Positions 27,978-42,255 of a stretch of 42,255 nt of DNA are shown here, one piece after another. How positions within the stretch are numbered: the first letter of the stretch is position 1; each line of letters begins with the position of its first letter. A program made the translations under genes and the position numbers. The notes beneath the pieces were generated by a model. The model searched no databases, was not told the DNA's origin, and was given only the letters and a program-made list of their open reading frames with translations. The DNA comes from Acidimicrobiia bacterium (GTDB taxonomy: Bacteria; Actinomycetota; Acidimicrobiia; IMCC26256; Chersky-534), in the NCBI GenBank assembly GCA_017882925.1, contig JADGOM010000013.1, positions 1 to 42,255 of the forward strand. The letters run 5' to 3'.

Positions 27978-28331
27978 ATGGCTCGGACCAAGTCGATCCC
28001 GCTCGAAGGCGGCGGCTGCTGCCCGTCGGTCCTGGCGGCCCCCGTCACCGAAGCCCAGGCGACCGACCTGGCCCGGCTGTTCGCCGCGCTCGGCGACCCG
28101 GTGCGCCTGCGACTCCTGAGCCTCGTCGCCGACGCGGGCGAGGTCTGCTCCTGCGACCTGCTCGAGTCGCTCGACCGCGCCCAGCCGACGGTCTCGCACC
28201 ACACCAAGGTCCTCGTCGACGCCGGCCTCATCGAGGGCGAGAAGCGCGGGCGCTGGGTGTGGTGGCGGATCGTCCCCGAGCGGGTCGACGAGATGCGCGA
28301 CGCCCTCGCCGGCGCGCACGTGCGGGCCTGA
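27978..28331 (+). CDS. arsR: ArsR/SmtB family metalloregulatory repressor
   Basis: EVCSCDLLE (the ELCVCDL-type As(III) site), PTVSHHTKVL HTH, and an N-terminal GGGCCPS pair. GGAGG lies 7 nt upstream of ATG 27978. Confidence 0.85.
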   Translation: MARTKSIPLEGGGCCPSVLAAPVTEAQATDLARLFAALGDPVRLRLLSLVADAGEVCSCDLLESLDRAQPTVSHHTKVLVDAGLIEGEKRGRWVWWRIVPERVDEMRDALAGAHVRA

Positions 28332-28387: not shown

Positions 28388-28993
28388 CTACGGGAGGGTC
28401 TCGTTCGTGATGTCGAAGCCCAGGTCGCGGCGTCGCTTCCGGCACGCCAGCTCGTACGTCGCGCTGGGGCCGATCAGGAACACCAGCCGCACCAGGCCCT
28501 CGTCGCTGCTGCTGCGCACCCGGAAGCCGAGGCGGTGGAACACGGAGTGCAGCCGGTGGTCGTGCTCCCAGATGTCGGCCTCGAACACGCCGATGCCGGC
28601 GGCGCGGGACTCGTCGATCAGCTGTTCGAGGAGCGCGGTCCCGATGCCCCGCCCCCGGTGGGCGTCGTCCACCACCACCGCGACCTCGGCGTTGACCTCC
28701 TCGGCCAGGCGGTCGGCCCGGGCGAGGCCCACGATCCGCGGCCCGTCGATCGCCACCACGCTCAGGTGGTCGGAGCCGTCGACCCGGGTGAACCGCCGGG
28801 CGTCGGCGGCGCTCAACGTGGCGCTCGTGCCGAAGTACCGGCGCCCGGCCTGGTCGGCGAGCGCATCGTGAAAGGCGCGCAACGCCCCGGCGTCGCCCGG
28901 CCGTGCCGGCCGCACGAGCAGCGTGGGGCGAGGTGCGCCGGCGTCGTGGGGCCGGACGACCTCCTGCACACTCGATCCGGACGTGAGGTCCAT
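28388..28993 (-). CDS. GNAT family N-acetyltransferase (resembles the acetyltransferase domain of Pat-type protein acetyltransferases)
   Basis: Acetyl-CoA site HRGRGIGTALLE and N-terminal VRPARPGDAGALRAFHDAL. The start is ATG 28993 (or track start 29044, which would bury box A). Confidence 0.7.
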   Translation of the reverse strand: MDLTSGSSVQEVVRPHDAGAPRPTLLVRPARPGDAGALRAFHDALADQAGRRYFGTSATLSAADARRFTRVDGSDHLSVVAIDGPRIVGLARADRLAEEVNAEVAVVVDDAHRGRGIGTALLEQLIDESRAAGIGVFEADIWEHDHRLHSVFHRLGFRVRSSSDEGLVRLVFLIGPSATYELACRKRRRDLGFDITNETLP

Positions 28994-29025
28994 GGGCCCA
29001 GTCTCGGCCTGGTGGAGCACCCGCC

Positions 29026-29045
29026 TTAGGGGCAAAGGTCCCATT
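29026..29045 (-). promoter_or_regulatory. DosR-box-like motif copy A (ttAGGGgcaAAGGTCCCatt), upstream of the GNAT gene
   Basis: Read directly. Lies 33-52 nt upstream of ATG 28993 and shares the core with five other copies. Confidence 0.55.
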
Positions 29046-29087
29046 CAGGCGGTAATAGGCCACGCGGCCCCTTGTCGGCAGTCCGCG

Positions 29088-30677
29088 CTACTCGACCGCC
29101 ACGTCCCGCCGGTTGAAGACCCAGCCCCCGGCCAGCACGCCGAGCGCGCCCACGCCGGCCAGGGCGGCCATCGTCGTGACGTCGGCCGGGACCGCCGGCA
29201 CCGGGGCGAGGTGGCTGAACGGGGAGATGTCGAGCACCCACTGCGGGGCCTGGGCCAGCCCGCCGATGAGCAGGATCGCGTAGCTCAGGGCGACGGCACC
29301 GAAGGCGACGAGGGTGGTCAGCCGGGGCGCGACGCCGAAGGCCAGGGTGGTGAGGCCGAGGAAGAGGACCGCGAGCGGGACGGTGCTCACCGCACCCTTC
29401 ACGCAGTCGACGAGCCCGATCGACTGCCCGCTCAGCCGCACGCCGGCCCACGCCGCGAAGCCACCCGCCACGGTGACCGCGACGAGCACGCCGATCGCGA
29501 CGGCGATGCGGGTGGCGAGCCAGGCGAGCCGCGCCGCCCCGCTCGTGAGGAGCGCGTCGACCCGCCCCGACTCCTCCTGGGTCCGCGCCGCGATGATCTG
29601 GGTGCCCGCGTAGACCGAGACGACGACCGCGATCACGCTGAACGACAGCCCCAGAAATCCCTTGATCGTGGCGACGGACGTGCCCGCGACGTGGGCGAGC
29701 GTCGAGCGGATGTTGTTCGAGTCGGCCACGTACTTCGCAATGTCGGCCGCGATGAAGCCCAGCACGAGCCCCACGACGCCGACCCCCGCGGTCCAGCCGA
29801 CCAGGCCGCCGGCGTTGAGCCGCCAGTCGAGCCCGCGCAGGGAGTGCAGCGGCCGCGGCGGACGGGTCGACCCGGCCGACTCGTAGAACCCGGCGCCCGC
29901 GTCACGCCGGGCGCGCAGCACCCCGGCGAGGCCGAACAGCAGCACGGAGGAAACGACGATCGCGAGCGCGGCGACCACGACGTCGCCGGTCCTCGGGTGC
30001 CCGTAGGCGTCGAGGTGCTCCACCCAGCCGAGCGGGGAGACCCACGCGAGCCACCGGCGATCGGAGCTCGCGTCGGCGATCGCCCGGATCAGGTACGAGG
30101 CCCCGAGGACGATCCCGGCCGAGCTCGCGGCCCGGCGCCGCGACGCCGCGAGCTGGCTGGTGACCGCGGCCAGCGCGCCGAAGAGCGCCGCGCCGGCCGC
30201 GAGCATCCCTCCGTAGGTGAGCGCGCCCGCCCACCCCAGCCCCCCGGCGAGGCACCCGACCGTGGCGCCCGCGCCCACCACGACCGCGGCGCCGACGAAC
30301 ACGAGGATCTGCCGGTCGAGCAGGTCGCGGGGACCGGGGACGCTCGCCATGAGGATCTCGTTGCGGCCCGACTCCTCGTCGCCCCGCATGATCCGCGTGA
30401 CCGCGAGGAGGGCCCAGAGCGCGACGACCGTCGCCACGGTCGAGCCGTAGCGCCAGGCCACGAACCCGCCGGGCGTGCCGATGTTGGTGCCGCGACCGTA
30501 GAGGGCGTCGAGCCCGCGGCTGGAGCCGAGCGTCGCGATGAGTCGGGCCCGATCGGCCGCCAACGGATACGCGGCGCGGTAGGCCTCGGCGCCGGCGAAC
30601 AGCACCACGGCGATCAGCGCCGCCCAGATCAGCGCGCCGCGTCGGAGCAGCCGCACCGCGAGCCGACGCGTGTTCAC
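29088..30677 (-). CDS. ABC-2 type exporter permease (COG3559-like, polyether/polyketide-antibiotic exporter family)
   Basis: 529 aa with about 12 hydrophobic segments. N-terminus LLRRGALIWAALIAV...YRAAYP. The GTG overlaps the ATPase stop (GTGA). Confidence 0.7.
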   Translation of the reverse strand: MNTRRLAVRLLRRGALIWAALIAVVLFAGAEAYRAAYPLAADRARLIATLGSSRGLDALYGRGTNIGTPGGFVAWRYGSTVATVVALWALLAVTRIMRGDEESGRNEILMASVPGPRDLLDRQILVFVGAAVVVGAGATVGCLAGGLGWAGALTYGGMLAAGAALFGALAAVTSQLAASRRRAASSAGIVLGASYLIRAIADASSDRRWLAWVSPLGWVEHLDAYGHPRTGDVVVAALAIVVSSVLLFGLAGVLRARRDAGAGFYESAGSTRPPRPLHSLRGLDWRLNAGGLVGWTAGVGVVGLVLGFIAADIAKYVADSNNIRSTLAHVAGTSVATIKGFLGLSFSVIAVVVSVYAGTQIIAARTQEESGRVDALLTSGAARLAWLATRIAVAIGVLVAVTVAGGFAAWAGVRLSGQSIGLVDCVKGAVSTVPLAVLFLGLTTLAFGVAPRLTTLVAFGAVALSYAILLIGGLAQAPQWVLDISPFSHLAPVPAVPADVTTMAALAGVGALGVLAGGWVFNRRDVAVE

Positions 30678-31624
30678 GACGCGCCGGTCTCCTTCGGCGC
30701 GTCGTCGCGGTAGAACGCGAGGAACAGCTCCTCGAGCGACGGCTCACGGATGTCGATCGAGTGCACCGACTCCCCCGAGAGCGCGTGCAGCAGCGGGGTC
30801 GGCTCGCCCCGCAGTCGGAAGGTGGCGTCGAGGCCGTCGACCGCGAGCTGCTCGACACCCGGCACCGTGCCGAGGTCGGCCACGGGGATCCGCTTGAACG
30901 ACACGTGGACGTCGCGGGTGTTGATCGCCCGGAGGTCCTCGAGCGTCCCCACGTCGACGAGCCGGCCCGACCGGAGGATCGCCACCCGGTCGCAGAGGGC
31001 CTCGACCTCCGACAGGATGTGCGAGGAGATGAAGACGGTCTGCCCCCTCCGGCGCGCGTCCTCGACGCAGTCGCGGAACACCACCTCCATCAACGGGTCG
31101 AGCCCGGTGGTGGGCTCGTCGAGCACGAGCAGGTCGGGATCCATCATGTACGCGGCGATCAGGGCGATCTTCTGGCGATTGCCCTTCGAGTACTCGCGGC
31201 CCCGCTTCGACGGGTCGAACTCGAACCGCTCCGACAGCTCGTCCCGGCGCTTCGCGTCGTAGCCACCCCGCAGCGAGCCGAGCAGGTCGAGCATCTCGGC
31301 GCCGCGCAGCGTGGGCCACGCGTTGAACTCCCCCGGCACGTGCGCGATGTGCGCGAGCGCGCCGCGCCGATCCGTCGCGACGTCGCAGCCGAAGATGCGC
31401 GCGCGGCCCCGGGTCGGGCGCGCGAGCCCGAGCAGCATGCGGATCGCCGTCGTCTTCCCGGCCCCGTTGGGCCCGAGGAAGCCGTAGACATCGCCCGGCG
31501 CGACCGTGATCGACAGGTCGTCGAGCGCCGTGAAGTCACCGAACCGCTTGGTGAGGCCCTCGGTGACGATCGCCGGCGGAGCTCCGGACGCACCAGGGCT
31601 CGCAGCTGACGGGGCGGACGGCAC
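30674..31624 (-). CDS. ABC transporter ATP-binding protein (DrrA/ABC-2 subfamily)
   Basis: Walker A GPNGAGKTT and Walker B LLVLDEPTTGLDP. Has a YSKGNRQK signature variant. Lies 9 nt downstream of the tandem USP gene. Confidence 0.85.
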   Translation of the reverse strand: MPSAPSAASPGASGAPPAIVTEGLTKRFGDFTALDDLSITVAPGDVYGFLGPNGAGKTTAIRMLLGLARPTRGRARIFGCDVATDRRGALAHIAHVPGEFNAWPTLRGAEMLDLLGSLRGGYDAKRRDELSERFEFDPSKRGREYSKGNRQKIALIAAYMMDPDLLVLDEPTTGLDPLMEVVFRDCVEDARRRGQTVFISSHILSEVEALCDRVAILRSGRLVDVGTLEDLRAINTRDVHVSFKRIPVADLGTVPGVEQLAVDGLDATFRLRGEPTPLLHALSGESVHSIDIREPSLEELFLAFYRDDAPKETGAS

Positions 31625-31633
31625 GAGGCGAGG

Positions 31634-32440
31634 CTAGGCCCCGGTTCGCCGGACCGTGAGCACCGGGCAGGGCGCGTTGCCGAGCACGCCCATCGTGACG
31701 CTGCCGACGAAGACGCGCGCCGCTCCCTGCCGTCCGTGCGTCGCCATCACGAACATCGACACCGAGTGCTCCTCCGCGAAGTCGACCAACGCGCCCGGCG
31801 TGTAGTTGCTCCGGATCAACCACGTGCGGGTCTCGACGCCGGTGCCCGCGAGCCGGGCCACGACCGGGGCGAAGAGCTCACGCGGGTTCTCCGCGCTCTC
31901 GACGTCGAGCGGGTGCATCACGGTGGCGATCCAGAGCGGCGCGCCGGCCGCGCGTGCGAACCCGGCCGCGACGTCGACGAGCTCGTCCTCGCCGCTCGAG
32001 CCGTCGTGGCACATGACGACGCGCAGATCCGCCGGGAGCCACGGCGCGCAGCGCCGGCCGACGAGCAGCACCGGCGCGTCGGCGATCTGGACCACCTCTT
32101 CGGCCACGCTGCCGATCAACGCCCAGCGGAAGCCGCTCCGGCCGTGGGTGGTCATGCAGATCATCGAACCCGGGCGGGTGCGGACGAAGGAGTTGATCGC
32201 GACCGCGACGTCGCGCGCCCCCAGCACCACCGACTCCACCGGCACGCCCGAGAGCGTGGCGGCGACGCCCTGGAGGTACTCGAGGGCAGACTCGCGGGCC
32301 TCGAGCCAATCCGTCGTGAGGAGCACGACCTTGCCGCCGAAGCGCGCCGCGAGCGATCCCGCCACCGACACCGCGCGTTCGGCGAGCTTCGACCCGTCGA
32401 GCGGGACGACCAGCTCGGACGGGGTCTCGAAGGCGGTCAA
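31634..32440 (-). CDS. Tandem universal stress protein (two USP domains)
   Basis: Two repeats ending in MTTHGRSGFRWALIGSVAEEVV and MATHGRQGAARVFVGSVTMGVL. The start is tentatively TTG 32440, overlapping the upstream TGA. The rest of the 445-aa track ORF was rejected. Confidence 0.7.
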   Translation of the reverse strand: MTAFETPSELVVPLDGSKLAERAVSVAGSLAARFGGKVVLLTTDWLEARESALEYLQGVAATLSGVPVESVVLGARDVAVAINSFVRTRPGSMICMTTHGRSGFRWALIGSVAEEVVQIADAPVLLVGRRCAPWLPADLRVVMCHDGSSGEDELVDVAAGFARAAGAPLWIATVMHPLDVESAENPRELFAPVVARLAGTGVETRTWLIRSNYTPGALVDFAEEHSVSMFVMATHGRQGAARVFVGSVTMGVLGNAPCPVLTVRRTGA

Positions 32441-32907
32441 TGGACGACCACCACGGGGCAGGCGGCGTGGGCCACGACCTGCTGGCTGACCGAGCCGAGC
32501 AGCAGGCCCTTGAAGCCACCGAGGCCGCGCGAGGCCACGACCATCAGCTCCGCGTGCCCGCTCAGCTCGACGAGCACCTGCGCCGCCGGGCCGCACCGGA
32601 CGTCGGCCAACCAGGGGAACTCCGCCGCGTCGAGCCCGGCCTTCTCGACCGCCGCGTGCAGCACCGCGGTCGCGTTGCGGTGGAAGTCGTGGCTGTTCCA
32701 CGGATCGACGTCGAGCGGGAGGATCGCGAGCGCGGGCGGGTACGTCCAACAGGTCACCATGTGCAGCTCGATCCCCCGGAGGGCGGCTTCCCCCGCGGCC
32801 CACCGGAGCGCGCGCACCGAGTGCTCCGAGCCGTCGATGCCGACGACGATCTTGCGCACCTCGGCCGCCTCGACGTCGGCGACGCCGACCTCGGAAGTCT
32901 CGGTCAC
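32437..32907 (-). CDS. Universal stress protein (single USP domain)
   Basis: IVVGIDGSEHSVRALRWA and VVASRGLGGFKGLLLGSVSQQVVAHAACPVVVV (G-2x-G-9x-GS ATP motif). The GTG overlaps the CBS gene stop (GTGA). Confidence 0.85.
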   Translation of the reverse strand: MTETSEVGVADVEAAEVRKIVVGIDGSEHSVRALRWAAGEAALRGIELHMVTCWTYPPALAILPLDVDPWNSHDFHRNATAVLHAAVEKAGLDAAEFPWLADVRCGPAAQVLVELSGHAELMVVASRGLGGFKGLLLGSVSQQVVAHAACPVVVVH

Positions 32908-33344
32908 GGTTGGGGCTCCAGTTCCTGGGTTGCGGGGCGGCCCGCCGCGACGGCGACCTCACCGGAGACACAACCGCCTCCGTCGACGGCCGTCAAGACC
33001 TCCGCCAGCGACACGGTCCCGATCGGGTCACCCGCGGCGTCCACGACGATGAGCTGCGTGGCCTGCGAACGGAGCATCGCCGCGAGCGCGTCGAAGGCCG
33101 TCGTGGAGGCCACGACCGTCTCGCAGTCGGACGACACCGCGACCATCGCCGACGTGAGCGGCGACCGCCCGAGCGCCGTCGCGGCCACGAGATCGCGTTC
33201 GGTGAGGATCGCGGCACCCGAACCGATGACCACCGCCGTGGCCCCCGTCCGCACCATCGACTGCGCGGCCTCGAGCAGCCGCGTGTCGCGCGGGAGCGCC
33301 ACCACCCGTGCGAGCTCCATGTCCATCACCTGCATCATCTGCAT
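32904..33344 (-). CDS. CBS-domain pair protein (Rv2626c/Hrp1-like architecture)
   Basis: 146 aa with two CBS-like repeats (ILTERDLV, PIGTVSLAEVL). GGAGG lies about 9 nt upstream of ATG 33344. Confidence 0.7.
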   Translation of the reverse strand: MQMMQVMDMELARVVALPRDTRLLEAAQSMVRTGATAVVIGSGAAILTERDLVAATALGRSPLTSAMVAVSSDCETVVASTTAFDALAAMLRSQATQLIVVDAAGDPIGTVSLAEVLTAVDGGGCVSGEVAVAAGRPATQELEPQP

Positions 33345-33399
33345 GACCGGCCCCCTCCCCTCGCCATGGCAACAGCTTGGGCAACGCCGCCCGCGGCCG

Positions 33400-33419
33400 T
33401 CAGGGCCAAAGGTCCCGAG
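33400..33419 (-). promoter_or_regulatory. DosR-box-like motif copy B (tcAGGGccaAAGGTCCCgag), upstream of the CBS-USP-USP-ABC operon
   Basis: Read directly; 56-75 nt upstream of ATG 33344. Confidence 0.6.
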
Positions 33420-33461
33420 CCTTCAGGAAGCCGACACCCGGGAACCGGCTCACCCGTGGCG

Positions 33462-34370
33462 TCAGGTGCGCGGGGCGATCGTGGTGCCCGCGGTGCCTTC
33501 GAGCAGCGCGAGCGCGTCGCCGAGCGCACCGATCCCCGCGGTGCCACCCGAATCGCGGGCGAACCGGCACGCGGCCGCCACCTTGGGTCCCATCGACCCG
33601 GCGGCGAACCCGATCCGCTCCATCGAGTCGGGGTCGGAGGTCCGGATCAGGTGCGCGTCGGCGCGGCCCCAGTCCGCGACGACGCCCTCCACGTCGGTGA
33701 GGAGCAGGAGGCGGTCGGCGCCGAGCCGCGTCGCGAGCAGGGCCGACGTCGCGTCCTTGTCGACCACGGCCTCCACCCCCCGGTAGCCACCTGCCTCGTC
33801 GAGCGTGACCGGCACTCCCCCGCCGCCGGCGCAGACGACCACGATCCCGCGGTCGACGAGGAGCTCGATGGTGTGGAGCTCGACGATCGCCGCGGGCGCG
33901 GGCGACGGCACGACCCGGCGCCAGCGGTCGCCGTCCGGCGCGATGGACCAACCGTGGTCGGCGACGACGCGCAACGCGGCCTCTTGGTCGTAGACGGGCC
34001 CCACCGGCTTCGACGGCTTCGCGAACGCCGGATCCGCCGGATCGACCACCACCTGGGTGAGCAGAGTGGCGACGTCGCGGTCGCGCAGCTCGTTGCCGAT
34101 GGCCTGCTCGAGCAGGTAGCCGATCATGCCTTCGCTCTCGGCGCCGAGGACGTCGAGCGGATACGGCTCGGCGCCGCGGTATGCGGCCGCCTGCAGCGCG
34201 AGCAGGCCGACCTGCGGCCCGTTGCCGTGGGTCACGACCACCCGGTGGTCGCGCGCGAGCTCGGCGATCGCCGCGGCCGCGGTCTTCACGTTGCGGCGCT
34301 GCACCTCGGCGTCGAGCGGCTCACCCCGCCGGAGCAGCGCGTTCCCACCCAGGGCGACGACGATCAGCAT
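33462..34370 (-). CDS. arcC: Carbamate kinase
   Basis: IVVALGGNAL, VVTHGNGPQVG and VVCAGGGGVPV motifs. Overlaps the OTC gene stop by 7 nt. Confidence 0.9.
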   Translation of the reverse strand: MLIVVALGGNALLRRGEPLDAEVQRRNVKTAAAAIAELARDHRVVVTHGNGPQVGLLALQAAAYRGAEPYPLDVLGAESEGMIGYLLEQAIGNELRDRDVATLLTQVVVDPADPAFAKPSKPVGPVYDQEAALRVVADHGWSIAPDGDRWRRVVPSPAPAAIVELHTIELLVDRGIVVVCAGGGGVPVTLDEAGGYRGVEAVVDKDATSALLATRLGADRLLLLTDVEGVVADWGRADAHLIRTSDPDSMERIGFAAGSMGPKVAAACRFARDSGGTAGIGALGDALALLEGTAGTTIAPRT

Positions 34371-35305
34371 CCCGACCCCGTGAGCCGGCCCCGCACCAGC
34401 CCGTGGAGCACGGCCTGCGCGGTCGGCAGCCGGTTCTCCGCCTGGCGGAGCACGATCGACCGCGGCCCGTCGATGACCTCGGGCGCGACCTCGTCGGCCC
34501 GGCGGGCGGGAAGGCAGTGCATGAACCGGGCGTCGTGCGAGGCCTCGGCGAACAGCTCACCGGTCACGCGGTAGGGGGCGAGGGCGAACTCCCGCTCCGG
34601 CTTCTCCGACCCGGGATCGCCCATCGACATCCACGCGTCGGTGTAGACGAAGTCGGCCGCCTTCACCGCGGCGTGGGGATCGTTGACCACCTCGACCCGC
34701 GCGCCCGTCACCGCGGCGATGCGCCGCGCCCGCTCGACCACCTCGTCGGACGGCGCGTACCCGGGGGGCGTCGCGATGGCGATGTCCATGCCCACCAGCG
34801 CCGCGCCTTCGAGGAGGCTGTGGGCGACGTTGTTGCCGTCGCCGAGGTAGGCGAGCTTCAGCCCGGCGAAATCACCGTAGAGCTCGCGGATCGTGAGCAG
34901 GTCGGCGATGCTCTGGCAGGGGTGGTGCCGGTCGGTCAACGCGTTGATCACCGGGATCGTCGCGTGCTCGGCGAACGTCCGCACCTGCTCGTCGTCGGGC
35001 GTGCGGATCACGACCGCGGCGGCGTACTCCGACACGACGCGGGCGGTGTCGGCGGTCGTCTCCGGGTGCCCCATCTGCAGATCGCCCGGCCCGACGACGA
35101 CCGGCGTGCCGCCCATGCGGGCCACCGCGGTCTCGAACGACAGCCGGGTGCGGGTCGACGGCGTGGTCAGGTAGAGGACCACGGTCTCGCCCCGCAGCAG
35201 CTTGTGGTCGATCCGGTGATCGAGCTTCAGCTCCTCGGCGAATGCGAGCAGGTACTCGAGATCGTCGGGGGACAGATCCGCGGTGCGGAGCAGATCCTTC
35301 AACAT
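34364..35305 (-). CDS. argF: Ornithine carbamoyltransferase
   Basis: STRTR, HPCQ, DAWMSMG and HCLPA motifs. GGAGGA lies 5 nt upstream of ATG 35305. A catabolic role (arcB) is suggested only by coupling to arcC. Confidence 0.88.
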   Translation of the reverse strand: MLKDLLRTADLSPDDLEYLLAFAEELKLDHRIDHKLLRGETVVLYLTTPSTRTRLSFETAVARMGGTPVVVGPGDLQMGHPETTADTARVVSEYAAAVVIRTPDDEQVRTFAEHATIPVINALTDRHHPCQSIADLLTIRELYGDFAGLKLAYLGDGNNVAHSLLEGAALVGMDIAIATPPGYAPSDEVVERARRIAAVTGARVEVVNDPHAAVKAADFVYTDAWMSMGDPGSEKPEREFALAPYRVTGELFAEASHDARFMHCLPARRADEVAPEVIDGPRSIVLRQAENRLPTAQAVLHGLVRGRLTGSGC

Positions 35306-35361
35306 GGTGTCCTCCGGTGTTCGCGGCGGACTCCAGAGTGCGACGGCGGGTCCGGGTGTCG

Positions 35362-35381
35362 TCAGGGTCCAAGGTCCCGAA
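35362..35381 (-). promoter_or_regulatory. DosR-box-like motif copy C (tcAGGGtccAAGGTCCCgaa), in the divergent region between the OTC gene and the haem-binding-domain gene
   Basis: Read directly. Lies 57-76 nt upstream of ATG 35305 and 56-75 nt upstream of ATG 35437. It is the most palindromic copy (GGGtCC-AA-GGTCCC) and matches 14 of 20 positions of TTSGGGACTWWAGTCCCSAA. Confidence 0.6.
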
Positions 35382-35436
35382 CCGGCGGGGCCGCGCGGCA
35401 CTATCGCCGTTGCGGCGGGATCGGTAGACCGGAGCC

Positions 35437-35889
35437 ATGAGAAAGCGCCTGCTCATCGTCCTCGCCGCGCTGGTGGCCGCGTTCCTGCTGATACAGCTCG
35501 TCCCCTACCGGGTGACGAACCCGCCCGTCGGCGCGGAGCCGAAGTGGGACAGCCCGCGCACGCGCCAACTCGCGGTCGCGGCGTGCTTCGACTGCCACAG
35601 CAACCAGACCCACACCACCTGGTGGGAAGACGTCGCGCCGCTCTCGTGGTGGATCACCAACCACGTGCGCGACGGCCGCGCCGCACTCAACTTCTCGGAG
35701 TGGGGCTCCTCGCAGGGTGAGGGCGCGGGGGACGCGGCCGAGACGGTGTCGAACGGGTCGATGCCACCGAACTACTACACGTGGCTGGGCATGCACGGCC
35801 CGGCGAGCCTCACGGCCGCGGAGCGCAAGGAGCTCGCCACCGGGCTGCAGAAGACCCTCGGCGGATCGGGGGGCTCCGGAGGCGGCTGA
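35437..35889 (+). CDS. Haem-binding-domain (PF14376-like) protein with an N-terminal signal/anchor
   Basis: MRKRLLIVLAALVAAFLLI signal, CFDCHS (CxxCH) and LNFSEW...GSMPP pattern. Has a Gly/Ser tail. Confidence 0.7.
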   Translation: MRKRLLIVLAALVAAFLLIQLVPYRVTNPPVGAEPKWDSPRTRQLAVAACFDCHSNQTHTTWWEDVAPLSWWITNHVRDGRAALNFSEWGSSQGEGAGDAAETVSNGSMPPNYYTWLGMHGPASLTAAERKELATGLQKTLGGSGGSGGG

Positions 35890-35902
35890 ACCCGCGTCGG
35901 CC

Positions 35903-36319
35903 TCAGGCGCCGCCCGAGGGGCCGAAGCGCTGTCCGGAGACGAGCGTCGGGGCGACCTGGATGAGCTGCGAACGGGCGTCGGCCACCCACGTGGGGTGCA
36001 GGCGCTCGCGGGCCGTCGCGCTCCGGTCCGGGTCGGTGACCGCGTCGGCGAACCCGCGCACGAGCACGCTGTAGCCCATCTCGTCGACCGGGTCGAAGGT
36101 GTCGACCTGCAACGCGACGATGGTGCCCATCGACCCCGACGCCAGGGCGGTGCCGGCCAGCGTGGGGAAGACCACGAAGTCGTCGACGACCGCGAGGAAC
36201 ACGGGGAAGATCGCCGGGAGCGCTTCGATGCTCAGCCCCACCCGCCCGATCGCCGCCGAACGCAGGATGTCGAAGCACTCCGACCTGGACAGCTCGTGGA
36301 GGTGGTGGGTGGTCATCAC
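35903..36319 (-). CDS. Pyridoxamine 5'-phosphate oxidase-fold (PF12900-like) flavin/deazaflavin-binding protein
   Basis: LSRSECFDILRSAAIGRVGL...FPVFLAVVDDFVVF...YSVLVRGFADAVTD pattern. The start is GTG 36319 or the adjacent ATG 36316. Confidence 0.7.
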   Translation of the reverse strand: MMTTHHLHELSRSECFDILRSAAIGRVGLSIEALPAIFPVFLAVVDDFVVFPTLAGTALASGSMGTIVALQVDTFDPVDEMGYSVLVRGFADAVTDPDRSATARERLHPTWVADARSQLIQVAPTLVSGQRFGPSGGA

Positions 36320-36351
36320 CGACCCAGGGTGATGGGCCGCCGCCCGGCCGA

Positions 36352-36371
36352 CCAGGGTCGAAGGACCCGAC
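36352..36371 (-). promoter_or_regulatory. DosR-box-like motif copy F (ccAGGGtcgAAGGaCCCgac), upstream of the PNPOx-fold gene and overlapping the dosR stop
   Basis: Read directly. Lies 33-52 nt upstream of the start at 36319, with one mismatch in the strong half-site. Confidence 0.45.
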
Positions 36372-37039
36372 TACGCGTCGGACCGGGGCTTTGCGCCCCG
36401 GGACACATTGGCCCCGAAGACGGCGGCCTGGGTCCGCCGCTCCATGCCGAGCTTGGCCAGGAGGTTGGAGACGTAGTTCTTCACCGTCTTCTCGGCGAGG
36501 AACATCCGCTCCGCGATCTGGCGGTTGGTGAGCCCCTCGGCGATCAGGGCGAGGATCTTGCGCTCCTGCCCGGTGAGCCGGGCCAGGCGCTCGTCCTCCT
36601 TCGGCGGTTGGCGGACCCGGTCCATGACCCGGCCCACCAGCGTGGGATCGAGCAGCGACTGGCCCGCAGCCACCCGGCGGACCGCGTCGACGATGTCGGT
36701 GCCCCGCACCTGCTTCAGGAGGTAGCCCGAGGCTCCGGCCACGACCGCCTCGAACAGGGCCTCGTCGTCGGAGAACGACGTGAGCATGAGGCACTTGATC
36801 TCGGGGTGCGCGGAACGGACGTCGCGGCAGACCTCGACCCCGGATCCGTCGGGGAGCTGCACGTCGAGGATGGCGACGTGGGGCCGGGTGGGCGGGATGC
36901 GGGCGATCGCCTCCGCCGCCGTGCCCGCCTCGCCGACGACCTCGATCCCGTCGGTTCCCTCGAGCAGCGTGCGCACGCCTTCCCGCACGATCTCGTGATC
37001 GTCGAGCAGGAACACCCGGATCGGCGTGTGGTCATCCAT
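36371..37039 (-). CDS. dosR: NarL/LuxR-family response regulator, DosR/DevR-like
   Basis: Receiver domain RVFLLDDHEIV...VAILDVQLPDGSG, then LTGQERKILALIAEGLTNRQIAERMFLAEKTVKNYVSNLLAKLG HTH. The ATG overlaps the kinase stop by 8 nt. Confidence 0.85.
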   Translation of the reverse strand: MDDHTPIRVFLLDDHEIVREGVRTLLEGTDGIEVVGEAGTAAEAIARIPPTRPHVAILDVQLPDGSGVEVCRDVRSAHPEIKCLMLTSFSDDEALFEAVVAGASGYLLKQVRGTDIVDAVRRVAAGQSLLDPTLVGRVMDRVRQPPKEDERLARLTGQERKILALIAEGLTNRQIAERMFLAEKTVKNYVSNLLAKLGMERRTQAAVFGANVSRGAKPRSDA

Positions 37040-38810
37040 TGCGTCGGTTCCCGTTCCCGTCGAGCGATGTCGGCACCCGCCAGACGATCGTCGTGCCCGC
37101 GCCCGGCTCACTGGTGATCTCGAACGTACCGCTCAACGCCGCGGCCCGGCTCTCGAGGTTGGCCACGCCGCTGCGGCGGTCGTGCCCGGCCTGGAACCCC
37201 ACGCCGTCGTCGGTCACCCGGAGGACGATCTCGTCGGCGACCTGCACCGACACCTCCACGCGGCTCGCTCGCGCGTGCCGGCTCGCGTTCGAAACGGCTT
37301 CCCGGGTGCACGCGACCAGGTGCCGGGCGACGTCGGCGTCGATGGCGGTGTCGACCGGGCCGTCGAAGACCACGTGGGCCTCGAACCCCGCCCGCTCGGC
37401 GTACTCGTTCACCAGGTCGAGGATCTCGACCCGCACGCCCGACTTCGGCGGGGTGGCCAGGCTGAAGATGCTGGTGCGGATCTCCTTGATGGTGGCGTCG
37501 ACCTCGTCGATCGCCTTCGAGATCCGGGGCGCCTGCGAGCCTGCGGCGTCCGCGATCGTCGACTGGAGCAGCATGCCGACGGCGAAGAGGCGCTGGATGA
37601 CGGTGTCGTGCAGATTTCGGCCGATGCGCTCCCGGTCTTCCAGCGTGCGCATGCGGTCGTTGTCGCGCCGGCTGCGGGCGAGCTCGATCGCGAGCGCGGC
37701 CTGCCGGGCGAAGCTCGTGATCACGTCGACGTCCATGTCGGCGAAGGGGCGCCCGCCCTTCGTGTTGTCGACCGACAGCACGCCGAGCACCCGGTCGGCG
37801 CCGCGGAGCGGCACGTAGACGACGGCCCCCGGCTGCAGGGCGGCGATGGCGGGGAGGAAGACCCGGGGATCCTGGGTCGCGTCCTCGACGATGTGCGTGA
37901 CGCCTTCCAGGTAGGCCTGGCCCGCCGCGGTCCCCTCGACCGGCACCGAGATGCCGACGATCTCCTCGGTGTGCTCGCCGTGGGCCGCGACGATCTCGAG
38001 GAGCCGGCCGTCGTCACTGGCGAGCATGACCCGCACCCCGTCGGCGCGGGCGATCGCACCGGCGCGCACCGCGATGTCCTGCAGCACCTCCTCGACCGGT
38101 TCGCCCGCCAGGAGGTTGCGGTTGATGTCGGCGATGGCGTCGATCCACTGCTCGCGCCGGCGCTGCTCGTCGTAGAGCGTCGCGTTCTCGATCGCGACTC
38201 CGGCGGCGATGGCGAGCGCGGAGACCAGCTCGAGGTCGGTGGAGGTGAACTCGTCGGCGCTCTGCTTCTCGCAGAGGTAGAGGTTGCCGAACACCGCCCC
38301 GCGGCTGCGCACCGGCACCCCGAGGAACGACCGCATGGGCGGGTGGTTCGCCGGGAAGCCCACCGATTCCCCGTGCTCGGAGAGGTCGCGCAGCATCAGC
38401 GGCCGGGGGTCGCGCACGAGGAGACCGAGGATGCCGTGACCGCGCGGGAGGGGCCCGATGCGCTCCCGGGTCTCGTCGTCGATGCCGACGGTGATGAACT
38501 CGGAGAGCTGCCGGTCGGCGCCGATCACGCCGAGCGCGCCGTACCGGGCGTCGACCAGGCGGCACGCGCCCTCGACGATGGCCCGAAGAACCTCGGGGAG
38601 GCTGAGGCCGGTGCCGACGGCGACGACTGCGTCGAGCAGCACCTGGAACCGGCCGACGGCGCCGAGCGCCGCGTTGGTCCGCACCCCGAGCTCGGCGACG
38701 AGCTCCTCGAGCTGGAGATGGGCCGCGTCGAGTCGGGGTGGGGCCGAGGCATCGCCAAGCTGGTCTCTCGGGTCCACGTATTCCCTCCGCAGACAAACCT
38801 CGGGCGCCAC
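37032..38810 (-). CDS. dosS: GAF-GAF-HisKA_3-HATPase sensor histidine kinase, DosS/DosT (DevS)-like haem sensor
   Basis: GAF-A segment GFPANHPPMRSFLGVPVRSRGAVFGNLYLCEK aligns with the mycobacterial DosS/DosT haem pocket, with the proximal His in HPPM conserved. H-box RIGRNLHDTVIQRLFAVG. C-terminal ATPase domain. Confidence 0.85.
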   Translation of the reverse strand: MAPEVCLRREYVDPRDQLGDASAPPRLDAAHLQLEELVAELGVRTNAALGAVGRFQVLLDAVVAVGTGLSLPEVLRAIVEGACRLVDARYGALGVIGADRQLSEFITVGIDDETRERIGPLPRGHGILGLLVRDPRPLMLRDLSEHGESVGFPANHPPMRSFLGVPVRSRGAVFGNLYLCEKQSADEFTSTDLELVSALAIAAGVAIENATLYDEQRRREQWIDAIADINRNLLAGEPVEEVLQDIAVRAGAIARADGVRVMLASDDGRLLEIVAAHGEHTEEIVGISVPVEGTAAGQAYLEGVTHIVEDATQDPRVFLPAIAALQPGAVVYVPLRGADRVLGVLSVDNTKGGRPFADMDVDVITSFARQAALAIELARSRRDNDRMRTLEDRERIGRNLHDTVIQRLFAVGMLLQSTIADAAGSQAPRISKAIDEVDATIKEIRTSIFSLATPPKSGVRVEILDLVNEYAERAGFEAHVVFDGPVDTAIDADVARHLVACTREAVSNASRHARASRVEVSVQVADEIVLRVTDDGVGFQAGHDRRSGVANLESRAAALSGTFEITSEPGAGTTIVWRVPTSLDGNGNRRNG

Positions 38811-38919
38811 GCCTTGACGCCGACGTGCTCCGATCCACGATCTGGCTGCAACTTAGCCGCCGAAGCGTTCCAACGGCGCCAAACCCGACACTCGCCCCGT
38901 CCCGTCGCAGCCCGGGTCG

Positions 38920-38939
38920 GTCGTGACCTTCGGCCCTGG
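38920..38939 (+). promoter_or_regulatory. DosR-box-like motif copy E (gtcGtGACCTTcggCCCTgg), in the dosS / Rv2004c-like divergent region
   Basis: Read directly. Lies 67-86 nt upstream of ATG 39006 and 110-129 nt upstream of the dosS start, with one mismatch (GTGAC for GGGAC). Confidence 0.5.
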
Positions 38940-38965
38940 GAGGCGGCGGATCCTTCCGGGATCCT

Positions 38966-39004
38966 CAGGAGGTCCCGACAGGAGGTCCCGACAGGAGGGC
39001 CCGC
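38966..39004 (+). repeat. Three tandem copies of a 13-bp unit caggaggtcccga (third copy caggagggcccgc), ending 1 nt before the ATG
   Basis: Units at 38966..38978, 38979..38991 and 38992..39004. Each contains AGGAGG, and only the last is at SD distance. Preceded by the palindrome ggatcc-ttccg-ggatcc at 38948..38964. Confidence 0.8.
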
Positions 39005-39005
39005 A

Positions 39006-40556
39006 ATGCCCGATCGCCCCGTCCCCCGATCCCCGCCCACGGTCCACGAGACCCACGTCTCGACGGTCTTCCTGGTCGGCGACCACGCGGCCAAGCTCAA
39101 GAAGCCGGTCCGCTTCCCGTTCCTCGACCTCTCGACCCGGGAGGCCCGCGAGCGGATGTGCCACCGCGAGGTGGAGCTCAACCGCCGGCTCAGCCCCGAC
39201 GTGTACCTGGGCGTGTTCGACATCGTCGGGCCCGACGGCGCGCCGCGCGACCACCTCGTGGTGATGCGGCGGATGCCCGACGGCCGCCGGCTGAGCTACC
39301 TGGTGCGGGCGGGCAAGGTGCCACCGGGTGCGCTGCAGGAGCTCGCCCACGTCATCGCGTCGTTCCACAGCCGGGCCGAGTCGTCCGACACGATCGACGC
39401 CGCCGCGACCCGCGACGCGATCGCCGGGCGCTGGGAGACCGGGTTCACCGAGATGGCGCCGCTGATCGTCACGCCCGGGGCGAAGGCGCTCGAGGACGAG
39501 ATCGAGGCCCGCGCCCGGCGCTACCTCGCGGGGCGGGAGGCGATCTTCGCGGCGCGCATCGACGAGGGCCGAATCCGCGACGGGCACGGCGACCTCCTGG
39601 CCGACGACGTGTTCATGCTCGACGACGGACCGCGCATCCTCGACTGCCTGGAGTTCGACGACGAGCTCCGGTACGGCGACACGCTGGCCGACATCGCGTT
39701 CCTGGCCATGGACCTCGAGCGCCTCGGCGCGCCCGGGCTCGCCCGGGAGCTCCTCACGTTCCACCGGGGGTACGGCGACGATTCGTACCCCGAAACGCTC
39801 GCCCACCAGTACATCGCCCTCCGCGCGCACATCCGGGCCAAGGTCGAAGGACTGCGGGCCGATCAGGGCGCGCCGGCCGCGGGGGAGACCGCGCGCGATC
39901 TCCTCGAGCTCGCGGCCGCCCACCTCCGGCGGACGCGGGTGGCACTCGTGCTCGTCGGCGGCGCCCCCGGAACCGGGAAGTCGACCCTCGCCGCCGCGCT
40001 CGCCACCGAGCTCGACATGGTGACGCTGCGCACCGACGAGGTGCGCAAGGACCTGGCGGGGATGGGGCACCTCGAGCGGGCCGGCGCCGGGCTCGACCAC
40101 GGCATCTACAGCGAGGACCACACGCACGCGACCTACGCGGAGATCCTCGACCGCGCCCGAGCGTTGCTGGAGGTGGGCGAATCGGTGGTGCTCGACGCGT
40201 CGTGGGCCGACGAGGAGTTCCGCGTCGCCGCCCGCGCACTCGCGGAGGAGACGGTGTCGGATCTGGTCGAGCTCCGGTGCGCGGTCGCAGAGGACATCGC
40301 GGCCGAGCGCATCGAGGCCCGCGCCCGGCGCGGCGACGACCCGTCGGACGTCACGCCCGAGATCGGCACCCAGATCGGCCGCCGGTTCGACCCGTGGCCG
40401 CAGGCGGTCACGATCCCGACCGACGGCTCCCGCTCCGATGCGATGGAGGTCGCGCTCGCCGCGTTCCGCGACGCGGATCCGATCGCGCGGAGCGCGACCT
40501 GCCGCGCGAACGGGACCTTCAGCCCTACTGGCCCGGCCGCGACGTCCGTACGTTGA
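39006..40556 (+). CDS. Bifunctional aminoglycoside-phosphotransferase-like kinase / P-loop ATP-binding protein (Rv2004c-like architecture)
   Basis: N-terminal APH/protein-kinase-like fold (HGDLLADDVF catalytic loop, DCLEFDDELRYGD) plus a C-terminal Walker A LVGGAPGTGKST domain. Only the last 516 aa of the 1176-aa track ORF are credible. Confidence 0.8.
   Translation: MPDRPVPRSPPTVHETHVSTVFLVGDHAAKLKKPVRFPFLDLSTREARERMCHREVELNRRLSPDVYLGVFDIVGPDGAPRDHLVVMRRMPDGRRLSYLVRAGKVPPGALQELAHVIASFHSRAESSDTIDAAATRDAIAGRWETGFTEMAPLIVTPGAKALEDEIEARARRYLAGREAIFAARIDEGRIRDGHGDLLADDVFMLDDGPRILDCLEFDDELRYGDTLADIAFLAMDLERLGAPGLARELLTFHRGYGDDSYPETLAHQYIALRAHIRAKVEGLRADQGAPAAGETARDLLELAAAHLRRTRVALVLVGGAPGTGKSTLAAALATELDMVTLRTDEVRKDLAGMGHLERAGAGLDHGIYSEDHTHATYAEILDRARALLEVGESVVLDASWADEEFRVAARALAEETVSDLVELRCAVAEDIAAERIEARARRGDDPSDVTPEIGTQIGRRFDPWPQAVTIPTDGSRSDAMEVALAAFRDADPIARSATCRANGTFSPTGPAATSVR
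40509..40528 (+). promoter_or_regulatory. DosR-box-like motif copy D (aacGGGACCTTcagCCCTac), upstream of the flavodoxin-like gene and inside the 3' end of the preceding CDS
   Basis: Read directly; 63-82 nt upstream of ATG 40591. Confidence 0.5.
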
Positions 40557-40590
40557 GCTGACCAGTCGAAGTGCGTCCGGAGGTCGGGAC

Positions 40591-41166
40591 ATGCGAGCAG
40601 TGGTGGTCTACGAGTCGATGTACGGCAACACGCACCACGTGGCCAACGCGATCGCGACCGGGCTGGGGCTCGGACTCGGGCTCGACGCCCAGGTGGTCGT
40701 GGTCCCGGTGAACGCCGCGATCCGCGAGACGATCGAACGGGCCGACCTCCTCGTGGTCGGCGGCCCGACCCACGTCCACGGCATGAGCCGCGAGAGCACG
40801 CGCCAGTCGGCGATCGAGACCGCGCACAAGCCCGAGTCCGAGCTCGAGATCGACCCCGACGCCGAGGGACCCGGCATCCGCGACTGGTTCGAGACCATCG
40901 ACCGCTTCGAGGGCCGTGCCGCCGCGTTCGACACCCGCCTCGACGGGCCCACCCTGCTCACCGGACGCGCGTCGAAGGGCATCGCCCACCAGCTCCGCAA
41001 GCACGGTGCCGCGCTCATCGCCGATCCCGAGAGCTTCCTGGTCACCAAGGACAACCACCTCGAGCCCGCGGAGGACGCGCGGGCCCGCGATTGGGGTTCC
41101 GAGCTCGCCCGCCTCACGACCGCGGGTGTGCCGGCCTCGGCGGGGGCCCGCTCGAAGACCCGATGA
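40591..41166 (+). CDS. Flavodoxin-like fold protein
   Basis: MRAVVVYESMYGNTHHVA N-terminal FMN-phosphate loop and LLVVGGPTH. GGAGG lies 7 nt upstream of the ATG. Confidence 0.75.
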   Translation: MRAVVVYESMYGNTHHVANAIATGLGLGLGLDAQVVVVPVNAAIRETIERADLLVVGGPTHVHGMSRESTRQSAIETAHKPESELEIDPDAEGPGIRDWFETIDRFEGRAAAFDTRLDGPTLLTGRASKGIAHQLRKHGAALIADPESFLVTKDNHLEPAEDARARDWGSELARLTTAGVPASAGARSKTR

Positions 41167-41227
41167 CGGTCCCGCCGTACCGGCGGCCCGGTCATCGGGC
41201 CCCGGCACCGGCGGTGATACTGGGCCC

Positions 41228-42255
41228 GTGACCGCGACCGCCCCCGAGTCGACGTGGTCCGGGACCAGCGCGGCCGAGGTGGCCGCGCTCGGGCCCGGCG
41301 ACGTCCTGGCGCGGCTCGGCACGACGGTCGACGGGCTCACGAGCCACGAGGCCCTCCGCCGGGCCGGGCAGGTGGGATCCAACACCGTGCGCACGCAGCG
41401 CACCCGGTGGTGGGTGGTGCTCGGCCGCCAGCTGCACAGCGCGCTGTTCCTCCTGCTGGTCGTCACCGCGGCGCTGTCGTTCTTCGTGGGCAGCAAGTCC
41501 GACGCGGTGATCATCGGCGTCATCCTGGCGATCTCGATCGGGCTCGGCTTCGTCAACGAGTTCCGGGCCGAGCTCGCGGCCGAGGCGCTGCACACGCAGA
41601 TCCACCACGACGTCGTCGTGCGCCGCGACGGCCGCGCGACCTCGCTCGACGCCCGGGAGCTGGTGCCGGGCGACGTGGTCCGGTTGAGCATGGGCGAGCT
41701 GGTGCCGGCCGACGTGCGCGTCCTCACCACCGACTCGCTCGAGTGCGACGAGTCGATCCTCACCGGCGAGTCGGTGGCCGCGGTGAAGTCGCCGGCGCCC
41801 GTCGCCGCGGGGACGGGCCTGGCCGACACGTCGTCATGCGCCTACATGGGCACCATCGTGCAGTCGGGATCCGCGCTGGCGGTGGTCGTCGCGACCGGCA
41901 CGCGCACCGAGTTCGGCCGTATCGCGGTGGGCCTCACCGACCGCCGCCACGAGACCGAGTTCCAGAAGGGCCTGCGGGAGTTCTCGGTGCTCCTGGTCCG
42001 CGTCGCCGGTGTGCTGACCACGTCGATCCTGGTCATCAACCTCCTCCTCCACCGCAACTTCCTGGAGTCGGTGCTCTTCTCGCTCGCCATCGCGGTCGGC
42101 ATCACGCCCCAGCTGCTCCCGGCCGTCGTCACCACCAGCCTCGCGGCGGGGTCACGGCGCCTGGCCCACAAGAAGGTCCTCGTCAAGCGGCTGGTGAGCA
42201 TCGAGGACCTCGGCAACATCGAGCTGCTGCTCACCGACAAGACCGGCACGCTCAC
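41228..42255 (+). CDS. Cation-transporting P-type ATPase, 5' part only (runs off the window); MgtA-like TM4 motif
   Basis: Hand translation from GTG 41228: ...GLTSHEALRRAGQVGSN..., LTGES, GITPQLLPAVVT, and DKTGTL at the window edge. Not present in the ORF track. The GTG is the first in-frame start after the flavodoxin stop. Confidence 0.8.
   Translation, partial: MTATAPESTWSGTSAAEVAALGPGDVLARLGTTVDGLTSHEALRRAGQVGSNTVRTQRTRWWVVLGRQLHSALFLLLVVTAALSFFVGSKSDAVIIGVILAISIGLGFVNEFRAELAAEALHTQIHHDVVVRRDGRATSLDARELVPGDVVRLSMGELVPADVRVLTTDSLECDESILTGESVAAVKSPAPVAAGTGLADTSSCAYMGTIVQSGSALAVVVATGTRTEFGRIAVGLTDRRHETEFQKGLREFSVLLVRVAGVLTTSILVINLLLHRNFLESVLFSLAIAVGITPQLLPAVVTTSLAAGSRRLAHKKVLVKRLVSIEDLGNIELLLTDKTGTL

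Follow-up and report, generated by a model that had tools for sequence, protein, structure and literature searches.

A putative local DosR-type regulon with six operator-preceded gene units in an uncultured, probably acidimicrobiial, actinobacterium

Do the stress and redox genes that surround a DosS/DosT-DosR-like two-component pair in an uncultured actinobacterium form its regulon, or do they only happen to adjoin it? The question is raised by a block at positions 28388 to 42255 of a 42,255-bp metagenomic contig with a GC content of about 72%, called the window throughout; the right edge of the block is the contig end. A first-pass annotation had described the block as a dosS-dosR pair together with a CBS protein, universal stress proteins (USPs), a kinase, a PNPOx-fold protein, a flavodoxin and a P-type ATPase. 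As extra genes it had listed ornithine carbamoyltransferase (OTC), carbamate kinase, an ABC exporter, a GNAT and a CxxCH haem-binding protein. Since raw lists of open reading frames (ORFs) are unreliable at such a GC content, the genes were called by third-position GC and the ORFs were then scanned with Pfam and NCBIfam; several starts were corrected, because the longest ORFs run over operator sites. Every gene class of both lists was recovered at its coordinates. Judging from the sequence, we consider it highly probable that the block is a local regulon of a system of the DosS/DosT-DosR (DevS/DevR, OsdK/OsdR) type in a high-GC actinobacterium of peat or permafrost, probably one of the Acidimicrobiia. 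The neighbours of the pair are very likely co-regulated via a conserved Dev-box-like operator at the class-II position.

The sensor kinase and the response regulator

The sensor kinase (37032-38777, minus strand, 581 aa, called protein P0001) was assigned by Pfam and PDB matches. Its domains follow each other as GAF-A (GAF, residues 69-208), GAF-B (GAF, 240-376), HisKA_3 (393-452) and HATPase_c (495-581), which is also the order in DevS and DosT of Mycobacterium tuberculosis. When GAF-A was compared with the PDB, the top five matches were DosT (2VZW, E 2e-50) and GAF-A entries of DevS (including 2W3D, E 7e-45 to 9e-44), and the next GAF-type match (E 3e-8) maps to GAF-B, not to GAF-A. The best matches of the kinase therefore lie in the DosS/DosT clade. 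The alignment of GAF-A to DosT and DevS is free of gaps, and the identity to the GAF-A of DosT is 59%.

The first-pass annotation had claimed a DosS/DosT-like haem pocket with a conserved proximal histidine, and this was borne out. The peptide GFPANHPPMRSFLGVPV is found in the kinase and aligns with the haem-ligand histidine of DosT and DevS. Equivalents of this proximal histidine (H147 in DosT, H149 in DevS) and of the distal tyrosine (Y169 and Y171) are present in 119 of 120 homologues of the clade, and the equivalents of DosT His147, Tyr169, Gly85, Met150 and Phe153 are kept in 118-120 of the 120. Glycine at DosT position 85 leaves room for the ligand to enter and is characteristic of the paralogue that senses O2. 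At the position of DosT Arg87 and DosS His89, all 118 clade members with a residue there have Ile, Leu or Val, and the distal pocket is therefore not quite the same as that of either mycobacterial protein. By every sequence test at hand the kinase is a haem-GAF kinase of the DosS/DosT type, with haem binding predicted.

The response regulator (36371-37039, minus strand) combines a REC domain with a GerE/LuxR helix-turn-helix domain according to Pfam and to the PDB entry 3C3W, and its gene overlaps the kinase gene by 8 nt. Against full-length DevR (3C3W) it scored E 1.4e-75, whereas the next family (VraR) reached 1.7e-43, about 100 bits lower. The equivalent of DevR Asp54 is kept (ILDVQLPDG aligned), and the recognition helix EKTVKNYVS is identical to that of M. 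tuberculosis DevR, including the DNA-contacting residues K179, K182 and N183. The gene annotated as dosR thus encodes a DevR orthologue. NCBIfam holds no model specific for DevS or DevR, the best matches being MadS/MadR and NarL under their cut-offs, and the family assignment of both proteins rests for this reason on the PDB comparisons. By every test short of biochemistry, kinase and regulator are a DosS/T-DosR pair.

Operators and promoter geometry

Six sites sharing the 19-mer TCGGGACCTTyGrCCCTGr were found in the block, one for each of six transcription units and each facing its unit; overlapping stop and start codons define the operons CBS-USP-USP-ABC-ABC, OTC-carbamate kinase and kinase-regulator. 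A weight matrix built from the six window sites scored them at 24-29 bits. The next best position in the window reached 14 bits, and no match of at least 10 bits was obtained in positions 1-28380. The box-preceded units hold 12 of the 15 block genes, with flavodoxin-ATPase counted as one unit. Because six near-identical operators precede the units and none occurs in 1-28380, the clustering of the genes is not a chance juxtaposition.

A pattern scan of genome contigs with poorly conserved kinase peptides gave one close locus (L001) and 30 unrelated HisKA_3 kinases; the 30 unrelated loci were reused as a control that is not GC-matched. When the window-only matrix was applied, the box was found at orthologous promoters in eight independent related loci, with 14 matches of at least 17 bits against 0.2 expected from Markov simulations. 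It precedes the PNPOx gene in seven loci, the flavodoxin gene in three and a multicopper oxidase gene in one. In locus L037, whose kinase is 88% identical, all five comparable promoters carry the box, and in the alignment with the window the box is kept and the flanks have diverged.

Operator 1 (ATGGGACCTTTGCCCCTAA, 29026-29044, minus strand, 26.2 bits) lies before the GNAT gene and is followed after 20 nt by GAGACT, a hexamer of the form NANNNT. Operator 2 (TCGGGACCTTTGGCCCTGA, 33400-33418, minus strand, 29.0 bits) stands before the CBS operon with the putative -10 hexamer CAAGCT at +20, and the orthologous site in L037 has the identical 19-mer. The 131-bp divergent region between the OTC and Haem_bd genes contains operator 3 (TCGGGACCTTGGACCCTGA, 35362-35380, minus strand, 27.7 bits), which faces OTC and has CACTCT at +21. 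Operator 4 (TCGGGTCCTTCGACCCTGG, 36352-36370, minus strand, 25.1 bits) touches the stop codon of dosR and precedes the PNPOx gene; its hexamer CACCCT is at +20, a GTG or ATG follows 6-9 nt past the -10, and a box is found at the same place in L001, L032, L033, L036, L037, L038 and L039. On the plus strand, operator 5 (TCGTGACCTTCGGCCCTGG, 38921-38939, 25.7 bits, GATCCT at +20) is situated in the divergent region between the kinase and APH/AAA_33 genes and faces the latter, and operator 6 (ACGGGACCTTCAGCCCTAC, 40510-40528, 24.3 bits, TACGTT at +20) is located within the 3' end of the APH/AAA_33 gene, before the flavodoxin gene. Sites orthologous to operators 3, 5 and 6 are present in L037, and boxes also stand before the flavodoxin genes of L032 and L038.

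The distance between box and hexamer was nearly invariant. When the six window boxes and 19 boxes of related loci were inspected together, NANNNT occurred exactly 20 nt 3' of the box in 23 of the 25, against a background of 1.8%; the remaining two are the two OTC promoters, where it occurs at 21 nt. If this hexamer is the -10 element, the box is centred at -42.5. The promoter-proximal Dev box of M. tuberculosis DevR, a GGGAC-N4-GTCCC-like palindrome, has a measured centre of -42.5 and overlaps the -35 region, and DevR contacts the GGGAC half-site (PMC3177182). The boxes described here share the centre and the half-sites GGGAC...GnCCC with the M. tuberculosis Dev box. At no fewer than 10 promoters an ATG or GTG follows 6-7 nt past the -10 hexamer, and leaderless mRNAs are therefore predicted, in the window for GNAT (ATG 28993) and PNPOx (GTG 36319).

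At the CBS promoter, the start codons of window and L037 differ in frame (window 33344-33375, L037 8830-8870). In both an ATG lies 6 nt past the predicted -10. In L037 this ATG shares the frame of the CBS gene; in the window it does not, and it opens a 10-codon ORF (MARGGGRSCR) that ends inside the start region ATGCAGATGATG. An indel or an assembly error could account for the difference, or the window could have a small upstream ORF that is leaderless.

Related loci and the genes of the block

Co-conservation with dosRS had been expected from the first-pass annotation. It holds for a core of kinase, regulator and PNPOx and for the gene classes, and fails for the order of the 14-kb block, which is kept only in L037. 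There, ATPase, flavodoxin and APH/AAA_33 kinase genes diverge from kinase-regulator-PNPOx-OTC-carbamate kinase-CBS; the CBS homologue (68% identical) is in the same place and the Haem_bd gene is absent from its position. In loci with 58-72% kinase identity, kinase-(regulator)-PNPOx is the sole constant arrangement, and a PNPOx homologue directly follows the regulator or the kinase in all seven related loci that reach that far. Flavodoxin, tandem USP, APH/AAA_33 kinase, the ABC pair (L033) and Haem_bd (L038) recur in varying combinations, as do the P-type ATPase, a multicopper oxidase and a phosphoribosyltransferase/hydrolase. The flavodoxin homologues in L037, L038 and L032 are 59-87% identical. 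L038 and L039 have homologues of the tandem USP, and in L035 and a JGI contig the PNPOx gene is followed by one for a USP of 266-268 aa. In L033 homologues of the ABC pair, 34% and 49% identical, adjoin kinase-PNPOx.

Several of these loci have features of their own. In L033 (10001-14770; also in L034), an Acidimicrobiia metagenome-assembled genome (MAG), a DosS/T-like kinase without an adjacent regulator is followed by a Dev box, PNPOx and the ABC pair; this kinase is thus an orphan that has kept its local targets. Four related loci, but not the window, have a gene immediately upstream of the kinase for a multicopper protein of two or three domains (Cu-oxidase_3/Cu-oxidase_2 plus cupredoxin; L035 7714-9161, L036 8563-9684, L038 1988-3370 and the JGI contig), which may be a laccase-like oxidase or a copper nitrite reductase. 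The copy in L035 is preceded by a 24-bit Dev box. L038 (5150-9459) encodes a phosphoribosyltransferase/alpha-beta-hydrolase fusion and a TreT-type trehalose glycosyltransferase beside the APH/AAA_33 kinase, a pair reminiscent of two members of the DosR regulon in M. tuberculosis, Rv0571c and the trehalose gene otsB1 (Rv2006).

The PNPOx-fold protein (35903-36319, minus strand; Pyridox_ox_2, PF12900, E 3e-20; PDB 6ECI, E 2e-19) directly follows the regulator, and its start is predicted to be leaderless. The class includes Rv0080, which is strongly DosR-dependent in BCG (PMC10703047). By class, not by direct sequence comparison, the window protein belongs with Rv0080 and SCO0214 of Streptomyces coelicolor.

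OTC (34364-35305, minus strand) and carbamate kinase (33462-34370, minus strand) overlap by 7 nt and both exceed their equivalog cut-offs. OTC matched OTCace and OTCace_N and reached 348 bits with TIGR00658 (cut-off 281); the kinase, of the arcC type, reached 368 bits with TIGR00746 (cut-off 358) and 454 bits with NF009008. A literature search returned no paper that pairs carbamate kinase with DosR.

The CBS protein (32904-33344, minus strand, CBS E 8e-11) is the first product of the five-gene operon. It had been proposed as the counterpart of Rv2626c, which was not borne out: PDB entries 1XKF and 1Y5H, the Rv2626c structures, were not matched even at E<=10, and the best match was archaeal ST2348. 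The start of the single-domain USP gene (32437-32907, minus strand, Usp E 9e-29) overlaps the CBS stop codon, and the TTG start of the tandem USP gene (31634-32440, minus strand, two Usp domains, Usp E 1.1e-37 in three stretches) shares bases with the stop codon of the USP gene before it (TTGA). Single and tandem USPs are thus present as annotated. Their reading as counterparts of the M. tuberculosis DosR-regulon USPs is weakened, since the tandem protein matched Rv2623 (3CIS/2JAX) weakly, with E 5e-4 over some 45 residues (75-120); by sequence both appear to be generic USPs. The operon continues with a DrrA-like ABC ATPase (30674-31624, minus strand; ABC_tran E 2.7e-23, DrrA1-3_C, 196 bits with TIGR01188 drrA, under cut-off). 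Its gene overlaps by 4 nt that of a polytopic membrane protein (29088-30677, minus strand), which gave no Pfam or NCBIfam match and is presumed from its context to be an ABC permease of the ABC-2/DrrB-like kind.

The GNAT gene (28388-28993, minus strand, 201 aa, Acetyltransf_1 E 1.5e-13) is predicted to start, without a leader, at ATG 28993, 6 nt past the predicted -10; a longer ORF that reaches 29044 overruns operator 1. The best NCBIfam match was the GNAT domain of acetyltransferase Pat, with 55 bits against a cut-off of 460. In the PDB the best matches were 4NXY/4U5Y (194-residue chains deposited as "Acyl-CoA synthetase"), which presumably correspond to the GNAT domain of a protein acetyltransferase of the Pat type in Streptomyces, followed by Rv0998 (4AVA), Pat (9IT0) and M. 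smegmatis Pat. In contrast to Pat and Rv0998, the window protein is a lone, stand-alone Pat-type domain that lacks a cNMP-binding and an NDP-forming acyl-CoA synthetase-like domain.

Among the plus-strand genes, 39006-40556 encodes a two-domain kinase-like protein with AAA_33 (E 4e-23) and an APH-like N-terminal half containing HGDLxxDD; a 54% identical homologue in L038 has PF01636 (APH) and AAA_33, and the homologue in L037 is 83% identical. Rv2004c is a protein of about 500 aa in which an APH-like domain precedes a P-loop (AAA_33) kinase domain, and by this architecture the label "Rv2004c-like" of the first-pass annotation fits. Directly before the ATG, at 38966-39003, a 13-bp unit CAGGAGGTCCCGA is repeated 2.9 times, multiplying a Shine-Dalgarno-like AGGAGG; in L037 there are about 1.5 copies only. 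The flavodoxin-like protein (40588-41166, plus strand) matched Flavodoxin_1 with E 8e-7 in its N-terminal part only. Its gene is probably co-transcribed with that of the P-type ATPase (41228-42255, plus strand, in-frame GTG at 41228), of which the contig end leaves the N-terminal third with Cation_ATPase_N and E1-E2_ATPase. This 329-aa fragment scored 243 bits with the MgtA type IIIB model TIGR01524, 213 with the H+ type IIIA, 205 with PMR1 and 182 with SERCA, and in the PDB MgtA (1.5e-51) came before the Ca pumps (1e-45 to 1e-41). These scores speak for an MgtA-type pump and not for the CtpF (Rv1997) type suggested earlier, an assignment that is provisional because only a third of the protein is present.

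The Haem_bd protein (PF14376, E 3e-29; CFDCH; 35437-35889, plus strand) is membrane-anchored or secreted. It is 79% identical to its copy in L038 (1-265), although the kinases of the two loci share 58%, and the L038 copy adjoins a box and the flavodoxin gene. The pattern of close similarity in L038 and absence in L037 suggests either strong constraint or independent movement of the gene.

To the left of the block, at 26031-28331, is an arsenic-resistance cluster with an LMWP-type ArsC carrying an N-terminal Phosphatase-like_N domain, an MIP aquaglyceroporin, a divergent ArsR and a glyoxalase-fold protein with the Cys-rich tail MCCSSAPESSARCC, an ArsI/CadI-like candidate. The cluster has no Dev box and therefore marks the left edge of the regulon. 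Further away, a 735-codon ORF (16852-19059, minus strand) joins MFS_1 (residues 65-364) to ABC_tran (514-659). It sits in an ABC operon of the branched-chain-amino-acid type with a 743-codon double BPD_transp_2 permease, a LivF-like ATPase and Peripla_BP_6, and the MFS-ABC ATPase fusion would be unusual if it is not due to a missed stop or a frameshift. At 2046-5172, FdhD/NarQ accompanies a molybdopterin oxidoreductase (formate dehydrogenase/nitrate-reductase-like catalytic subunit); the two genes may serve anaerobic respiration but have no Dev box.

Horizontal acquisition of the block was considered and set aside. The GC content is flat (0.70-0.75) across the window with no compositional break, and neither tRNA genes nor Rfam families were found across it, so that nothing suggests a mobile island. 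Near-identical DNA is present in permafrost and peat metagenomes, and the nearest named kinase relatives are Acidimicrobiia MAGs with 66-72% identity. The earlier remark that the proteins do not look mycobacterial in detail was right.

Mechanism, alternatives and known systems

The proposed mechanism starts at the first GAF domain of the kinase, which would hold haem. When O2 is lost, or when NO or CO binds, the kinase would, as homology suggests, phosphorylate its own HisKA_3 histidine and transfer the phosphate to the Asp54 equivalent of the regulator. The phosphorylated regulator would then bind the 19-bp near-palindrome, whose sequence and positions are observed, at about -42.5 of six promoters, where the operator overlaps the -35 region, and would promote class-II activation as DevR does in M. 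tuberculosis. The units under this control would be PNPOx; OTC-carbamate kinase; CBS-USP-tandem USP-ABC pair; GNAT; the APH/AAA_33 kinase; and flavodoxin, probably with the ATPase; several of their transcripts are predicted to be leaderless. From its gene content the set would provide nucleotide-binding stress proteins (USP, CBS), low-potential redox carriers (flavodoxin, PNPOx) and ion and export pumps, and OTC with carbamate kinase may yield substrate-level ATP from citrulline/carbamoyl phosphate when respiration fails.

A number of observations weigh against this reading. A secondary Dev box was sought at offsets -12 to -40 of the 25 promoters, and nothing above background was found. In M. 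tuberculosis, a DevR promoter requires a primary and at least one secondary box in tandem, 21 bp apart, and the secondary ones are poorly conserved (PMC3177182). Here one box per promoter is recognisable, with none 21 bp upstream of it; owing to this poor conservation, the absence of a second box by sequence is compatible with cooperative binding. Neither the kinase-regulator operon nor Haem_bd has a correctly spaced box and -10: when the sequence was read directly for a mirror-image -10 of operators 3 and 5, toward Haem_bd and the kinase operon, no hexamer was found at the needed spacing. The membership of Haem_bd in the regulon and autoregulation of the kinase-regulator operon are therefore uncertain. 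GNAT and most accessory genes are not co-conserved past the closest relative, and a GNAT homologue was found in none of the related loci examined. No arginine deiminase or arginine/ornithine antiporter was found among the scanned window ORFs, although their genes may be located in another part of the genome. This weakens the proposal of ATP from citrulline, and OTC could for this reason be biosynthetic. None of the RNA runs searched for the OTC-carbamate kinase stretch contains it.

Could stress and housekeeping genes that are common in actinobacteria have come together in the block by chance, without shared regulation, with the "operator" a repeat of no regulatory role? Most accessory genes lose synteny where the kinase is less than 75% identical, and USP, CBS, GNAT and ABC genes abound in high-GC genomes. 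The looser pattern GGGACNNNNGTCCC, with at most two mismatches, was rejected as a description of the operator, as it is unenriched in the window (50 found, 70 expected), which leaves the specific 19-mer. This 19-mer, however, stands six times before a unit, each time facing it, does not occur in the remaining 28 kb and is kept at orthologous promoters amid diverged flanks, with the 20-nt spacing to the -10 in 23 of 25 cases; a chance neighbourhood is accordingly very improbable. Still less credence is given to the idea that the operators are bound by a different LuxR/NarL-family or unrelated regulator encoded elsewhere. It could draw on L033, where boxes, PNPOx and kinase are kept without an adjacent regulator gene, but the motif fits the published DevR/OsdR consensus, the helix of the adjacent regulator is identical to that of DevR and in seven of eight loci the box with the highest score comes immediately after the regulator gene.

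The nature of the signal leaves somewhat more room. The kinase might respond to the redox state of the haem, mainly to NO/CO, or to a non-haem ligand of GAF-A rather than to loss of O2, and the genes would then form a redox or nitrosative-stress regulon. DosS and DosT have differing proposed modes, redox and O2 respectively, the aliphatic residue at the Arg87/His89 position in all 118 clade members sets the pocket apart from both, and the multicopper genes of the related loci, one of them box-preceded in L035, could encode nitrite reductases. The conserved proximal His, distal Tyr and DosT Gly85 equivalent speak against such a signal, as do the waterlogged-soil habitat and the fit of USPs, flavodoxin and carbamate kinase to energy limitation. 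We regard it as unlikely and favour a local DosR-type regulon that would respond to loss of O2.

The closest parallel to the block is found in Streptomyces. In S. coelicolor, OsdK/OsdR (SCO0203/SCO0204) lie in the region SCO0167-SCO0219 and sites are predicted for 20 of 22 genes of SCO0198-SCO0219; the listed OsdR sites include AGGGACCTTCGGCCCC, before narG2 and SCO0167, and CGGGACCTTCGGCCCT (PMC5069765). Both sites are nearly identical to the window motif. In both systems a DevR-type regulator has sites over its own neighbourhood, including USPs and PNPOx (SCO0214), with 12 of 15 genes here against 20 of 22 there. The Streptomyces region differs in being larger, with nitrate reductase Nar2, a nitroreductase, PPDK and alcohol dehydrogenases, and in a more symmetric consensus, AGGGCCGATCGGCCCT. 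OTC/carbamate kinase and a Pat-type GNAT are unreported there, and the present lineage is Acidimicrobiia-like and uncultured. A compact DosR-type regulon is thus already known, with OsdRK as the direct precedent.

The M. tuberculosis regulon overlaps in its target classes: USPs, a PNPOx-type protein (Rv0080), an Rv2004c-type kinase and a P-type ATPase. Its targets are scattered, whereas those proposed here lie beside the regulator. Genes of the hspX, nitroreductase (acg/Rv3131), narK2, fdxA and tgs1 classes were not found in the window, and OTC with carbamate kinase, the ABC pair and the Pat-type GNAT are extras. Mycobacteria, too, have species-specific DosR regulons (PMC10034137).

Two of the extras resemble known systems. 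Like the arginine deiminase (ADI) operons arcABC(D), the block has OTC and carbamate kinase in one operon; it differs in that neither deiminase nor antiporter was found among the scanned ORFs and in the proposed DosR-type control, as opposed to control of the Anr/ArcR type. In other bacteria, O2 limitation is the classical inducer of ADI operons, and by this likeness OTC and carbamate kinase would fit a hypoxia regulon. The GNAT has Rv0998 and Pat among its best PDB matches. In M. tuberculosis, Rv0998 acetylates DosR at K182 and damps the hypoxia response (PMC5861037). As K182 is kept in the window regulator, a feedback loop through the GNAT is conceivable. All this may be combined in one reading, which we offer tentatively and hold to be rather doubtful as a whole: in peat and permafrost Acidimicrobiia the DosR-type switch would work through minimal single-box promoters (-42.5), often leaderless, and would have recruited two modules unknown from mycobacterial or Streptomyces regulons, an OTC-carbamate kinase operon for ATP from citrulline or carbamoyl phosphate in anoxia and a DosR-induced GNAT that feeds back on K182 or on the USPs, with PNPOx as the core effector.

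Taken together, the block presents itself as a small DosR-type regulon defined by its sequence, with one sensor, one regulator and six single-operator promoters at a fixed distance to the -10. New are the cargo of OTC/carbamate kinase, ABC pair and Pat-type GNAT and the uniform single-box, often leaderless promoters. The picture of DosR biology is unchanged, because a clustered regulon with the same operator has already been described in Streptomyces. The block is useful as a comparative model in which ancestral and lineage-specific parts of the DosR response can be told apart: the kinase-regulator-PNPOx core, the USPs and flavodoxin look ancestral, and the OTC-carbamate kinase pair, the ABC exporter and the Pat-type GNAT seem to be specific to this lineage. 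In conclusion, it suggests how uncultured actinobacteria of waterlogged, oxygen-poor soils may survive anoxia.

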